NCBI GenBank assembly: GCA_963693055.1
Contig: OY843751.1
Span: forward strand, 2,048,001-2,112,000
Source: a bacterium
Lineage (GTDB): Bacteria > Zhuqueibacterota > Zhuqueibacteria > Residuimicrobiales > Krinioviventaceae
Direction of reading: 5' to 3'
DNA: 64,000 bases
This document shows, in pieces, positions 55,554 through 60,606 of this stretch (its first letter is position 1; each line of letters begins with the position of its first letter). The position numbers were made by a program, and so were the translations under genes. The notes under the pieces were generated by a model that saw only the letters and a program-made list of their open reading frames with translations, did not search any database and was not told where the DNA came from.

Positions 55554-56864
55554 ATGAAAATTAACGCTAGTAGAATATTAGCAATAATAATCATACTGAG
55601 CACTATAATGTGTGTGAACGTATCAGGTCAATATGAACCTGAAGGAAATTACGACTGGAAAAGTAATATGGTTATTGCTGATCGGAAACGCGATGAGGCA
55701 GGGATGTTGCAACCACTCCAGTCTTATGATGAAACAATCCGTCGTGGGATGTCGTTGCTGCTGATTGATCATTTACTTTGGTTTAAAGGATCAAGAGAAA
55801 ACCTTCAGGATGAGAATGGGAACACCCAGATGCCATGGGTATACTATTCAAACATTCAGCACAATGGCGAACCATTTCCAAATTCTATAGACCGTTTTGT
55901 GTCATACCCGGCATTTCATCACTCCTTGATGATCAAAACATTTATCAAATACTGGAAATACTTGGGAGATAAGCAGGCGCTCAAGGAAGCTATTAAGCTG
56001 GCAGATTGGAACATTGCTCATAGAACACCGAGCGAGTGGGCTTATGGGAACATGCCCTACAGTACCTTTGAGGAAAAGAAACCGGGAGGCTTTAGGGACA
56101 AGAGTGGTATCATGCCTGACAAGGGAGCAATTATGGCTTTGGCTTATTTAGAACTGTATGAAGCTACTAATAAACAAAAATATAAAGATGCCGCAGAATC
56201 TATTGCCAATACACTATGCAAAACGCAACGCCCTAATGGTACATGGCCTTTTCGTGTCGATCCGAAAACAGAAAAGGTGATCGAAGAATATACAAGCAGT
56301 GTCATCTATGCTGTTATGTTATTTGAGAACCTGGATACATTGAACAAAAATAATAATTTCAAGTTTTATCATGACCGAACATGGGAGTGGTTACTGAATG
56401 GTCCGATCAAGACTAAGGAATTTCGAGGTTTCTATGAAGATATCCCGGAAAATACAGAGGGGCGTACCAATTACGATTGTCTTGACGTGATACGTTATTT
56501 GCTGTCCAACCGGACAGACAGTAATGGCTATCTTGAAATGGCACTGGAGCTTAATGTTTGGGTTGAAAAAATCTTTATGGACAAGATTGAAGGCTTTGAG
56601 CCAGCAGAGGGGATTCGAGAACAATTGCAGTGCAATTATATCATGGGCGTTCACAGCCTGAATTGGGCATCAATGCTGCTGGTTCTTGCCAAGGCTTCTG
56701 ATGACGAAAAGATGAGAGAGCGGGCTATACAGACGGCAAATTATGTTACCTATTATTTACAACCAGACAACCGGATTGTGGTGGGTTTCAATTATAATCA
56801 GTGGTGGTACAGTTGCCACATTGGTGTTATCCTGTATTTATTTGATTTTTTGGCTGCAAATTGA
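55554..56864 (+). CDS. Secreted (alpha/alpha)6-toroid protein of unknown function, possibly carbohydrate-active
   Basis: Signal peptide, helical hairpin repeats (YLELYEATNKQKYKDAA, QRPNGTWPFRV), GFYED. Confidence 0.6.
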   Translation: MKINASRILAIIIILSTIMCVNVSGQYEPEGNYDWKSNMVIADRKRDEAGMLQPLQSYDETIRRGMSLLLIDHLLWFKGSRENLQDENGNTQMPWVYYSNIQHNGEPFPNSIDRFVSYPAFHHSLMIKTFIKYWKYLGDKQALKEAIKLADWNIAHRTPSEWAYGNMPYSTFEEKKPGGFRDKSGIMPDKGAIMALAYLELYEATNKQKYKDAAESIANTLCKTQRPNGTWPFRVDPKTEKVIEEYTSSVIYAVMLFENLDTLNKNNNFKFYHDRTWEWLLNGPIKTKEFRGFYEDIPENTEGRTNYDCLDVIRYLLSNRTDSNGYLEMALELNVWVEKIFMDKIEGFEPAEGIREQLQCNYIMGVHSLNWASMLLVLAKASDDEKMRERAIQTANYVTYYLQPDNRIVVGFNYNQWWYSCHIGVILYLFDFLAAN

Positions 56865-56917
56865 TTTATAAAAACAATTTGCATAAAACCAGTTGAAAAG
56901 ATAATGACAGTCATTAG

Positions 56918-56977
56918 CCCGGACTTCCTGTCCGGGATTATGAAATTAGGTAGAAAAACACCGGACGGAACGTTCGG
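56918..56977. repeat. Two related CCGGAC-type hairpins (REP-like)
   Basis: CCCGGAC-TTCCT-GTCCGGG (56918-56936) and CCGGACG-GAA-CGTTCGG (56961-56977). Confidence 0.45.
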
Positions 56978-57204
56978 GTTACGAACGGGTAATCCAAGAC
57001 ATTTCAAAAGAAATCGTAATTTTTTTTGTAATAGGAAAAGACTTGGTATAATATCTGTTTAATAGCATATAAAACTCGTTAAAAATGTTGCATTAGTCAA
57101 AGTGTATTGTTAAATTTCTTACCTGATTGATTTTTTATCAGGTTTAGCAATGAATTGAATATATTATCGGTATATAACCACAATGGACAAGTGTTAATCA
57201 GACC

Positions 57205-57516
57205 ATGTTTTCTGGATTCGGGAAAAAAATAAAATCAGGCAATCATTTTTTGATCGTATTGCTTGTTTTATTATTATTATTGCAGGTTATCGGGCTTGAT
57301 TTGTTTCACAATCATGAACCTGATTTCGAACATCATGATGATTGTCCTGCAAGTCTATTGTACTTTATGTTCAGTTCAATTTTTTTCTTTGATACAATAG
57401 TCAAATTTTTTTTATTATTAATTTGTATTTTACAATTTGTCTATTACCAAACCCATCATTTATATTTTTATGAAAAATACCTGTCTCGTGCACCTCCTAT
57501 TCTACTAATTTATTAA
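57205..57516 (+). CDS. DUF2946-like His-rich leader protein ending in a RAPP ribosome-arrest motif
   Basis: N-terminal TM/signal, HNHEPDFEHHDDCPAS, a second hydrophobic stretch and SRAPP close to the stop; directly upstream of a metal-uptake operon. Confidence 0.75.
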   Translation: MFSGFGKKIKSGNHFLIVLLVLLLLLQVIGLDLFHNHEPDFEHHDDCPASLLYFMFSSIFFFDTIVKFFLLLICILQFVYYQTHHLYFYEKYLSRAPPILLIY

Positions 57517-57530
57517 CAAAACAAATTATT

Positions 57531-57674
57531 AAACTCTTTTTGAGAGATTTAGCCATTTTTTACTGCATTTATCTACTCTGTTGACTAAACTGGAGGTGGG
57601 TAAAGTATATATATTGGTGTATATCTTGTGATTTATTCACCAAAATGCATTTGTGGCTCATTCACTTTTTTTTT
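57531..57674 (+). promoter_or_regulatory. Structured intergenic RNA, putative attenuator
   Basis: Nested complementary pairs AGCCA/TGGCT, TGCATTT/AAATGCA, TTTATCTACTC/GAGGTGGGTAAA and TTGGTG/CACCAA, followed by T9. Confidence 0.5.
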
Positions 57675-57706
57675 AATGAATCGAATTTATATAAAGGAAT
57701 TCAATC

Positions 57707-59281
57707 ATGAAACGTTTTTATAAATATAAATTTTTTTTCCCCCTTTTATTTGCATCGCTTGTTTTGGTTTTTACCAGTTGTGAGAAAGACAATCCAACTC
57801 AACCGAAATTGTTAGAAATCATCGGATTGGTAATTACCCAGGGTGATTCAACCGTAGTAAATTATAGCGGTGATGAAACCGTAAACGGCGAGATTGAAGC
57901 AGCAGAAGGACAACTCTCGGCAGAATTTACCATTCAATTTATTGATGGTGACCAGGCAGTTTTTTCTCCTTCAACAGATAGTTATCAGTTGAAAGTCGAT
58001 GTCCTGGATGAAACCGTTTGCGGATTTTATCAACACGATGATGAGACTGGTGGATTTGAATTTCATCTGGATGCACGAGACAAAGAGCACGGGCACACAA
58101 CCATAGTATTTAATCTGCTCAAGGGTGAAAATACTGTTTTTACATCCAAAGCCATTCCGGTCCATGTTGAGGGCGAAGAAGAGACCGTGTCAGCCTGGAT
58201 ATGGGCTTACGACGGTACTGCAAGTGCTTTGCGCGCGTATAATGCTGCCACCGGTGAAATGAAAGCTGAATTTACATCAAGTGCCCATCCCATGATGCAC
58301 ATAATTAATGCAGGTCCTGCCGAGGAACCCACAATTTGGATGGCTAATGCAGGTACTGCATATGCCTTTACCTCCGGATTTCACAGTCATGGTGATCATG
58401 GCCATATGGAAACGCCGGAAATTTATCAAACCGTGTCTACCGGGCAAAGCCCTGTGCATATCGGTGTTTCACCGGATGGTATGACCGTTGCCTTTTCCAA
58501 TGACGGCGACCAAACCGTATCAGTGATTGATGTTTCTACTGGTGCTGTTCAAACCATTTCCGGCGGTTCCGGGCATTCTGCCGCGTTACTTACCGGCGAG
58601 TATCTTGTTACAACATCGGCAACTTCTACTGATGAAAAATGGGCAAAGATTATTGACATTGCTTCCAACTCGGTCATTGCTGAAATTGAAACGGCAACAG
58701 GTACTCATGGTGATGCTTATTATGCCGATGGAAATACTGCTTTTCTGGCGTGTGGTGATGGTATTTATGTTGTTGATGTAACTGCCAAATCGCTAAAAAA
58801 GAGTATCCCTTATACGGAAGCCGGCCGTACAAATTTTCTGTATCACGGCGAGAACGCTTCAATAGCAGTGGGATTGCACAAAACAGATGCCGGAGTTAGT
58901 GATAAAATATTATTGTTGGATATGTCTGCAGAAACTTTGGATTACTTGACAATTTCCGGAGCTACGCTGGACTGGAAAATTAAAGACGGTTATTTTGCAC
59001 TCTCCAATGATGGTCAGGTAGCTGTGTTGGCAGATTTGACGTTACCGCAGGTTTATCATATAAACCTGCAAACCAAAACGGTTAATACCTTAACAGCTCC
59101 CGCGGCTTCGGCGGCTGTTGCCACGAACCATGATGGATCACAGGTGTGGGTACAAGACAAAACCAACCATAAAGTTTCTCGTATTGATGTTGAGCATAAC
59201 CAGCTAACGGATGAATTCAGTGTTACATCCGGTACGGAATGGATATTTGTAACTTCATTTGACGGTGAAGTGATAGAATAG
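57707..59281 (+). CDS. AztD-like beta-propeller lipoprotein with extra N-terminal domain, putative zinc/metal chaperone
   Basis: Lipobox FTSC, FHSHGDHGH, PVH, GH and HGD motifs; YVTN-like blades (VSPDG...SVID). Confidence 0.7.
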   Translation: MKRFYKYKFFFPLLFASLVLVFTSCEKDNPTQPKLLEIIGLVITQGDSTVVNYSGDETVNGEIEAAEGQLSAEFTIQFIDGDQAVFSPSTDSYQLKVDVLDETVCGFYQHDDETGGFEFHLDARDKEHGHTTIVFNLLKGENTVFTSKAIPVHVEGEEETVSAWIWAYDGTASALRAYNAATGEMKAEFTSSAHPMMHIINAGPAEEPTIWMANAGTAYAFTSGFHSHGDHGHMETPEIYQTVSTGQSPVHIGVSPDGMTVAFSNDGDQTVSVIDVSTGAVQTISGGSGHSAALLTGEYLVTTSATSTDEKWAKIIDIASNSVIAEIETATGTHGDAYYADGNTAFLACGDGIYVVDVTAKSLKKSIPYTEAGRTNFLYHGENASIAVGLHKTDAGVSDKILLLDMSAETLDYLTISGATLDWKIKDGYFALSNDGQVAVLADLTLPQVYHINLQTKTVNTLTAPAASAAVATNHDGSQVWVQDKTNHKVSRIDVEHNQLTDEFSVTSGTEWIFVTSFDGEVIE

Positions 59282-59343: not shown

Positions 59344-60606
59344 ATGATTATGAGAAAATTGAAATTGTATTATTTACCTGTGTTGATTGTTTTGATAGGG
59401 CTTTTAAGTCAATGTGCTGTTGATCCTGAAGATGATATATTGGCCCCTGAAAATGAAGAACCAACAACAAAACACACTATAGCAGGCTGGGTATGGGCAT
59501 ATAATTCTGACGATGCAGTATGTAATGTTTACCATACAGAAGACATGCAAATGTGGGCTTCTTTTTCCGCTGAAATGCATCCGATGATCCGCGTTTTTGA
59601 AGCCGGCCTTATAAATTCAAATTTGAACTACTCCCAATGGATGGCAAAGGGAAACCAAATTTATGCCTTTACGGATGGCATTCTGGACCATGGTGATCAT
59701 GGACATATTGTTCTCCCTTTAGAACATAAAACAATTACATTGCATGAAAATGCCAACCTTGTACACAATAGTTGTTCCTCTAATGGACAGATGGTCGCAT
59801 TTGCGGATGATTCGCAGCAAAGTCTACATCTTATCAATGTCCAGGATGGAAAGGTAACGACAATTGAGCAAGGCTCAGCGCATTCTTCGGTAATACTCGC
59901 CGGTGATTACGTAATTACAACTGCAGCAACATCGACTGGTGAGAAATGGGCCAAGCTTGTATATATATCAACCGGAGAAGTGGAAAAAACGCTTGAAATT
60001 GGTGCCGGGGCACACGGTGATGTTTACTATGATCAAAACAATACAGCATTTATTGCCTGCGATGATGGTATTTATGTTGTTAATGTTGATGAAAAAAAAG
60101 TAGAAAAGAGAATTCCTTACGGAGAAGAAGGTAGAACCAATTTTCTGTATCATGCACCAGGAGAAGCTTATGCGGTTGGGCTGCATAAAACGGATTCCGG
60201 CACCAGCGATAAATTTATTTTGCTGGATATGGCAAGTGAAACGTTAGAGTATATTACAATACCCAATGCGCAATTGGATTGGAATATATCATTGGGTCTT
60301 TTTGCTTTGGCCCGGGAAGGGCGTGTAGCTGTTTTTTCAGATAAATCAAAAGCTAAAATATATCATGTAACCCTGGAAACCCGTGAGATCATCACTCTTG
60401 ATTCACCGAATGCAGCTTCTCCTGTAACTGTCAGCTATGATGGGACTCATGTCTGGGTACTTTCTGATCAAACAATAAGCCGGATTTATGTCCCAGCGAA
60501 CAAGGTCGAAGATACCTTTGCAGTACCCGCGGGTACAGATTGGATTCGGGTGACAACATATAAGACAGGTGCAGAACTATACGATAATGAAAAACACGAG
60601 TTTTGA
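59344..60606 (+). CDS. AztD-like beta-propeller lipoprotein, paralog of 57707-59281
   Basis: Lipobox LSQC, ILDHGDHGH; shares TxAxTSTxEKWAK, HGDxYY, ACxDGIYVV, GRTNFLYH and VGLHKTD with the upstream gene. Confidence 0.7.
   Translation: MIMRKLKLYYLPVLIVLIGLLSQCAVDPEDDILAPENEEPTTKHTIAGWVWAYNSDDAVCNVYHTEDMQMWASFSAEMHPMIRVFEAGLINSNLNYSQWMAKGNQIYAFTDGILDHGDHGHIVLPLEHKTITLHENANLVHNSCSSNGQMVAFADDSQQSLHLINVQDGKVTTIEQGSAHSSVILAGDYVITTAATSTGEKWAKLVYISTGEVEKTLEIGAGAHGDVYYDQNNTAFIACDDGIYVVNVDEKKVEKRIPYGEEGRTNFLYHAPGEAYAVGLHKTDSGTSDKFILLDMASETLEYITIPNAQLDWNISLGLFALAREGRVAVFSDKSKAKIYHVTLETREIITLDSPNAASPVTVSYDGTHVWVLSDQTISRIYVPANKVEDTFAVPAGTDWIRVTTYKTGAELYDNEKHEF

Follow-up and report, generated by a model that had tools for sequence, protein, structure and literature searches.

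We studied a short leader gene whose product ends in RAPP and which precedes two lipoprotein-like genes and a TonB-dependent receptor gene in a 64,000-nt stretch of bacterial DNA (the window). The leader is probably a metal-sensing arrest peptide of the CruR/CutF kind at the head of a likely zinc-uptake operon, and a 7-bp helix between its RAPP codons and the following spacer, which the original prediction had taken for the core of an RNA switch, would then be a side fold. Comparison of the loci of the leader family gave statistical support to another role of these codons: in the family the Pro-Pro codons double as an anti-Shine-Dalgarno (anti-SD) sequence.

Gene organization of the locus

RAPP occupies residues 95-98 of the leader, five residues before its stop, and a 190-nt spacer separates the leader from the lipoprotein ORF at 57707 (Table 1). 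The SD-like GGAGGTG within this spacer lies 108 nt upstream of the lipoprotein ATG and is not the SD of that gene; predicted pairing with the 3' end of 16S rRNA was -14.1 kcal/mol at the GGAGGTG site versus -5.7 kcal/mol for AAAGGA.

Table 1 Features of the leader and the genes behind it (window positions)
Feature	Position	Strand	Remarks
Leader ORF, 103 aa	57205..57516	+	hydrophobic segment, HNH..HHDDC, second hydrophobic segment, RAPP
His/Cys motif codons (residues 35-47), putative metal site	57307..57345	+	inferred
G-poor, C>G stretch, candidate Rho loading (rut) region	57384..57591	+	inferred
RAPP codons CGT GCA CCT CCT, predicted stall site	57487..57498	+	by analogy with CruR (PMC12992588)
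UCCU of the Pro-Pro codons, predicted weak anti-SD for the lipoprotein gene	57495..57498	+	register R+8:S-9
Last leader codons, stop and A-run	57508..57521	+	predicted pairing with 57668-57681, T9 included
Multi-stem spacer fold, predicted	57551..57658	+	AGCCA/UGGCU outer stem, UGCAU/AUGCA, inner hairpins
Local hairpin holding GGAGGUG, -10.2 kcal/mol	57568..57604	+	predicted
GGAGGTG, perfect SD-like 7-mer	57592..57598	+	complementary to 57491-57497
T9 tract	57666..57674	+	no strong hairpin beside it; predicted to pair in part with the A-run at the leader stop
Weak SD AAAGGA of the first lipoprotein gene	57693..57698	+	
First lipoprotein-like protein, 524 aa, His-rich	57707..59281	+	
Second lipoprotein-like protein, beta-propeller, 420 aa, AztD-like fold	59344..60606	+	structure model
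TonB-dependent receptor, 796 aa	60637..63027	+	PF00593, PF07715

The first lipoprotein-like protein has a C-terminal beta-propeller that is 45% identical to the product of the next gene. The structure model of this second protein (pLDDT 91) had AztD chains as its top nine Foldseek matches (E 6.5e-19 to 1.2e-14; TM 0.70-0.74 at 15-17% identity), and a profile match to 6cmk was found as well (E 4e-4); AztD has been termed a zinc-binding protein (PMC6689063). The NCBIfam matches shown for the TonB-dependent receptor were all under their cut-offs, including ZnuD with 117 vs 950 bits. The AztD-like lipoproteins point to zinc rather than copper, and on such models the operon behind the leader is likely one of zinc uptake; the ligand could instead be nickel, cobalt or copper. 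A palindrome, CCTGAT..ATCAGG, lies at 57119-57142, about 65 nt 5' of the leader start, and is possibly an operator or a terminator of the upstream glycosidase-like genes. No variants were present in the contigs of three sequencing runs, which represent at most one sample, possibly the source itself.

The leader family

A profile built from 12 aligned leader sequences matched in 53 of the 167 genomes of the phylum, and the profile search recovered 329 protein representatives at E<=0.001; a word-seeded protein search with the leader alone had yielded 88 candidates, none of which scored. The H, N, H and C of the His/Cys motif were invariant in all 12 aligned homologues. Among the best 150 of the 329 representatives, R[AGS]PP was found in 131, HxH..C in 149 and a CxxC of any kind in 19, and the distance from Cys to Arg was 48-50 residues in 123 of the 130 proteins with both motifs. 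The window leader has all of the invariant residues at the modal spacing of 48; its single Cys is the one in HHDDC, and it has no CxxC. Its N-terminus is basic, with a 19-residue hydropathy peak of 2.9 at residue 16.

The family has no Pfam family of its own, nor did searches give any other family of relevance; DUF2946 matched neither the window protein (E<=0.1) nor the 12 aligned members (E<=0.5) nor the 46 that were scanned of the best 150 homologues (E<=0.005), and an Atlas feature match of the leader to DUF2607 (rank 20, 0.91) is a lead only. A description of the family was not found in the titles or abstract openings of open-licence papers; it may already figure in the supplements of PMC9973294 and PMC12992588. 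A metagenome scan with the first lipoprotein gave one locus, which did not include the upstream region, and a scan of a genome collection with the clade alignment gave five loci (three duplicates and two weak matches), which were left out of the counts. Closer orthologues are known as proteins (P0171-P0176, P0180, P0185) and stand outside the DNA locus comparisons.

Three further small ORFs ending in RAPP precede long ORFs in the genome of the window (G000:C1:552249 on the minus strand, 2397731 and 4987646 on the plus strand). The last of these is a paralogue of the leader, and its Pro-Pro codons are predicted to pair with the CAGGAG SD of its own gene (P 0.91). In the phylum-level loci L069-L092, distant members of the family precede exported proteins other than lipoproteins, many with a signal peptide and a charged, coiled-coil-like N-terminus. 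Two loci have a tmRNA gene roughly 1 kb 5' of the leader (L030:202-562 and L031:2723-3084), and matches resembling CRISPR repeats, below the gathering score, occur upstream of the leader at L040:4-111.

The complementary segments and the fold of the spacer

CACCTCC (57491-57497), inside the RAPP codons, had been described as the exact complement of GGAGGTG (57592-57598). Both were found in place, and they form 7 Watson-Crick pairs that are not extendable. The segment named as alternative partner of GGAGGTG, TTTATCTACTC, is likewise present at 57568-57578, as are the arms listed for a multi-stem fold, i.e., AGCCA (57551) and TGGCT (57654), TGCATTT (57564) and AAATGCA (57643), TTGGTG (57614) and CACCAA (57638), and the T9 tract behind them. 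The stems overlap by 1-3 bases (TGCATTT and TTTATC have 57568-70 in common, CACCAA and AAATGCA 57643) and therefore cannot all form at full length; TTGGTG/CACCAA had a predicted P of 0.44-0.48. The fold does come before the T9 tract, but not directly before it: the last base of the outer stem is 57658, which leaves a gap of 7 nt. Similarly, no ATG, GTG or TTG lies at SD distance from GGAGGTG, as had been noted, but ATA occurs 8, 10 and 12 nt downstream of it.

Of 5000 dinucleotide shuffles of the spacer, 80 contained a complement of at least 7 nt to the 12 RAPP nucleotides, as did 149 of 3894 genome windows of 190 nt upstream of long ORFs and 41 of the 1615 AT-rich ones among them; for the 33-nt ribosome footprint the counts rose to 670 of 5000 shuffles and 299 of the 1615 AT-rich windows. 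Because of these rates the match is mildly unusual at best, in keeping with the original caution that it could be due to chance. It is also private to the window, as an internal complement of this length was found in none of the 46 other loci (1/47). A search for DNA homologues of the spacer in 18 family genomes gave none, only short scattered matches (E 0.002-0.1), and within its own genome the spacer matched itself and short chance segments.

The region 57545-57675, which was picked post hoc, had a folding z-score of -2.3 and was equalled by 3 of 200 shuffles; the z-score of 57480-57710 was -0.47. We folded the RNA at eight boundaries and three temperatures (24 settings), with and without a stall mask on 57478-57508. 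The CACCUCC:GGAGGUG helix had P<=0.025 in all 24 settings (0.0009 in the full region), i.e., at most 2.5% of the ensemble. At full length the proposal that a ribosome at RAPP selects between two folds was not borne out by these predictions, as the main stems of the spacer were the same with and without the mask (local hairpin about 0.80, outer stem 0.91-0.98). Forcing the 7-bp helix left the opening cost of the lipoprotein ribosome-binding site (RBS) unchanged (7.9 vs 7.9 free, 7.2 masked). The Rfam scan, which had been suggested with NiCo in mind, returned no match at gathering score in the window, and only four chance-level matches (E 2.6-8.7) in 56860-57760.

Nor did the consensus terminator scan list a terminator at T9, and no credible hairpin precedes the tract. 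The 4-bp GUGG/UCAC hairpin beside it is predicted at -1.5 kcal/mol and the best closed structure at -3.9 kcal/mol; of 350 T8+ runs sampled from the genome, 103 have a structure at least as stable. No case of RAPP codons driving an intrinsic terminator was found in the titles or abstract openings of open-licence papers.

The observations behind the original prediction were thus confirmed in part, and its interpretation is partly supported: the RAPP codons are indeed rich in C and resemble an anti-SD, a ribosome stalled on them would cover this strand, and the two named folds are topologically exclusive. Judged from the predicted folds, the flagged helix is probably a side fold and not a switch, and the 110-nt multi-stem is most simply seen as a self-folding spacer that brings the end of the leader near the RBS.

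Predicted pairing of the stall-site codons with Shine-Dalgarno sequences

The locus set started from 58 matches, of which three weak partial ones were dropped; among the 55 examined, four failed the motif filter, and L054, L055, L087 and L090 were dropped because no start could be assigned. In 47 records, one of them a spurious second record of L050, the 30 nt around RAPP were predicted to pair with their own RBS at -12.8 kcal/mol, against -10.3 kcal/mol in permuted pairs (0 of 100000). With GC-binned permutation and five same-genus loci removed the values were -12.8 vs -10.7 kcal/mol (0 of 50000, 42 loci, some same-genus pairs still among them); since the loci are related, both tests overstate significance. 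For the later counts the spurious L050 record was removed and L040 added by hand (47 in total), and full-fold counts refer to the 42 loci whose spacers do not exceed 300 nt, the remaining five being kept apart.

When the bases after RAPP were shuffled, 18 of 47 loci had a weaker duplex at p<=0.05; the same held for 9 of 47 when the RBS was shuffled with its SD core kept in place. A stall mask lowered the predicted RBS opening cost by at least 2 kcal/mol in 26 of 42 loci, versus 3 of 42 for a mask placed upstream. SD pairing exceeded P 0.5 in 25 of 42 loci (17 fell below) versus 5 of 42 controls, and it peaked at R+6 to R+14, i.e., the Pro-Pro codons and the next codon. In the stalled CruR ribosome the Pro-Pro codons occupy the P and A sites (PMC12992588), and the mRNA protected by a ribosome in arrest extends 15-17 nt past the first base of the P-site codon (PMC7897499). 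CCT encodes the first proline of the motif in 23 of the 47 leaders, compared with 45 of the 218 Pro codons of downstream genes, and G makes up 16% of four-fold third positions in the last 20 codons of the family leaders vs 31% earlier and 26% downstream.

The spacers of the family range from 36 to 622 nt, and 17 of the 21 tested fold better than the mean of their own shuffles (8 at z<=-2). Spacers that vary, fold on themselves and carry repeats are as expected of a length-tolerant scaffold. A repeat of about 260 nt lies in the L040 spacer (approximately L040:1180-1450) and has 42 matches in genome G123; palindromic REP-like repeats were seen by eye in the L049 spacer.

The window copy and its closest relatives

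In the window itself the predicted anti-SD is weak. At 37 °C the pairing of UCCU with AGGA (57695-98) had P 0.20-0.29 at six of the eight boundaries and 0.01-0.05 at the other two; the pairing of 57508-57521 had 0.32-0.77 in its 9-bp part and 0.18-0.44 in its T-tract part. The duplex, at -4.7 kcal/mol, was weaker than the cross-pair mean of -8.0 kcal/mol and did not outdo shuffles of the same composition (p 1.0 and 0.97), and the stall mask changed RBS opening by 0.3-1.3 kcal/mol. The close relative L032 has the same UCCU:AGGA register as the window, with P about 0.5; no such register pairs in L039 (opening change -2.6) or in L040 (+0.3).

A bubble of C over G is present in the window as in the leader family. 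In the window it peaks in the 78 nt from 57447, where C exceeds G by 15, which places it in the top 1.2% of genome windows, and the genome has a Rho gene. Note that Pro, Ser, Thr and His codons account in part for the C-richness, and that only about half of the G-poor stretch is predicted to be unpaired.

The three closest orthologous loci, which belong to three different families, share a 155-nt element in their spacers (L032:443-593 on the minus strand, L039:1898-2055 and L040:1019-1171 on the plus strand) that is single-copy in each genome. With its stems GGGAUU/AAUCCC and UGUUCG/CGAACA it is a candidate structured RNA; 92% of cells are paired and 8 pairs are changed on both sides, in three sequences from which the structure was itself derived. 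The element had no Rfam match and was not found in the window, in G000 or in the other genomes of the class that were searched. Homology of the window fold to this element was considered and rejected, as there was neither a joint consensus fold nor a model match.

Proposed mechanism and alternative explanations

In the reading that we consider probable, the ribosome would stall on the Pro-Pro codons when zinc is scarce, with these codons predicted in its P and A sites as in CruR, and would cover about 57478-57508. It would thereby hide the C-rich, G-poor stretch from Rho loading and remove the weak UCCU:AGGA pairing at the lipoprotein SD, so that the operon is expressed. Metal bound at the His/Cys motif, about 48 residues from the stall, would relieve the arrest; once the ribosome has left, Rho-dependent termination and some SD masking would shut the operon off. 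The multi-stem would serve as a fixed scaffold with T9 as part of its closing strand. Each functional step, from the arrest and the binding of a metal (with zinc as ligand) to the action of Rho and the polarity, is carried over here by analogy with CruR, CutF and SecM.

The flagged helix could still act kinetically, if CACCUCC, once freed, captured GGAGGUG as it emerges and so blocked the outer stems, leaving the small hairpin by U9 to terminate transcription, whereas a ribosome on RAPP would permit the read-through fold. Its narrowly defined chance rate of 1.6-3.8% and its polarity, in which stalling means on, as fits an uptake operon, speak for such an attenuator, yet the match is confined to one of 47 loci and the spacer has no DNA homologue in the family genomes. 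In transcripts ending at 57596-57616 the helix has a predicted P of 0.6-0.998, and the direct path to the hairpin state meets a barrier of 12-18 kcal/mol (an upper bound, which ignores branch migration); at full length, however, the helix state lies about 4.2-4.4 kcal/mol higher and has P<=0.025, and in intermediate transcripts another G-rich patch, at 57616-22, is a predicted partner of the RAPP codons as well, which shows their promiscuity. The hairpin by U9 does respond to the mask in transcripts ending at the tract (P 0.07 free vs 0.004-0.005 masked), but its stability is as low as given above, and a structure of <=-8 stands next to a T tract in only 4 of 47 family spacers. As a kinetic trap the helix thus shows transient dominance in the models without a convincing output; termination by capture is very unlikely, and the read-through half of the scheme is just as hard to credit.

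GGAGGUG might instead be a real or relic RBS of an AUA-started ORF that passes ribosomes on to the lipoprotein gene, which we regard as highly improbable; that the RAPP codons would then be its anti-SD, in the usual way of the family, is an equally remote prospect. This perfect SD (-14.1 kcal/mol) does lie at a typical family distance, 75 nt past the leader stop, and the ATA at 8 nt opens 38 codons (57607-57723) that overlap the lipoprotein start, the one at 10 nt 33 codons (57609-57710) with an ATGA overlap. Frames of at least 33 codons into the gene start also occur in several other spacers, however, and ATGA overlaps are frequent; AUA serves poorly as a start codon, GGAGGUG is about 80% locked in the local hairpin whether masked or not, and L032, L039 and L040 have no counterpart. 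A lineage rewiring, in which the SD weakened and the Pro-Pro codons now capture the internal SD-like site during transcription, which would convert a switch of translation into either the AUA-started relay or a Rho-independent kinetic attenuator that ends at U9, is quite unlikely; if true, the stall codons of a zinc-sensing arrest peptide would themselves select a transcriptional RNA fold. It is unlikely too, if less so, that the RNA layer has decayed, with the leader kept as a protein, the spacer a neutral, self-folding insertion and control weak or only transcriptional. The weak SD and anti-SD, the predicted switching close to zero in both the window and L040, the absence from the window of the element common to its three closest relatives and the uptake of repeats by spacers agree with decay, but the leader retains all its invariant residues at the modal spacing of 48, the C>G bubble ranks in the genome's top 1.2%, and the SD register is that of L032.

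Comparison with known systems

In attenuators of the trp and his type the position of the leader ribosome chooses between exclusive folds ahead of a U tract. The leader ribosome of the window could choose in a similar manner before its own U tract; unlike those attenuators, the window has no GC-rich hairpin by U9, no stable alternative fold at full length and no conservation of the pairing. The specific switch as proposed is probably not real, and the finding as first written is therefore of modest value. More useful is the family of RAPP leaders with a His/single-Cys motif and no Pfam model, heading likely zinc-uptake operons. Its members L041, L069, L047 and L033 are suited to compensatory-mutation tests, and the window copy is a test case for an output dominated by Rho.

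The closest parallel is CruR (Bp2923, DUF2946) of Bordetella pertussis, the leader of the bfrG TonB-receptor operon (PMC9426467, PMC12992588), for which Rho, a rut site shielded by the stalled ribosome, a C>G bubble and a 162-bp spacer are described (PMC9426467). The window leader resembles it in being a small, putatively exported protein with a C-terminal RAPP and a TonB receptor in its operon, in the fixed spacing of its metal motif (45 intervening residues in CruR, 48 from Cys to Arg in the window), in the long spacer (162 vs 190 nt) and the C>G bubble at the leader end, and, in its proposed working, in turning an uptake operon on by stalling. It differs in having a single Cys in HNH..HHDDC in place of CxxC, no DUF2946 match and a second hydrophobic segment, as well as AztD-like lipoproteins that point to zinc and not copper. 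SD pairing by the stall-site codons, as predicted in the leader family, is not described for CruR in the available text of PMC9426467 and PMC12992588. RAPP leaders before TonB receptors have already been reported as widespread (PMC12992588), and the same source, in its available text, leaves open whether and how RAPP arrest regulates the genes downstream of them.

CutF-like proteins have been delimited by a size below 150 aa, PP within the last 15 residues, a neighbour criterion and an N-terminal signal peptide (PMC9973294), and the window leader is like them in size, C-terminal PP and neighbour (190 nt to the 57707 ORF). In CutF-cutO of Rhodobacter capsulatus, as is predicted for the leader family, stalling is coupled to a stem that shields the SD (PMC9973294; bioRxiv 10.1101/2025.02.05.636593). 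CutF has CxxxC and PPP, stalls with Cu and turns a detoxification gene on, whereas the uptake operon of the window would need the opposite polarity and has its predicted anti-SD in the Pro-Pro and tail codons. SecM, MifM and VemP, as well as ApdA and ApdP, offer the disruption of an SD-sequestering stem by a stalled ribosome and the RAPP motif (PMC7897499, PMC10987492); these leaders monitor Sec/YidC function and precede sec/yidC genes, unlike the window leader with its His/Cys motif before likely metal-uptake genes. RAPP alone was insufficient for stable arrest in ApdA/ApdP (PMC7897499). The metal-sensing leaders characterised in the papers cited here respond to copper as far as their available text describes them, and a leader tuned to zinc would extend the class.
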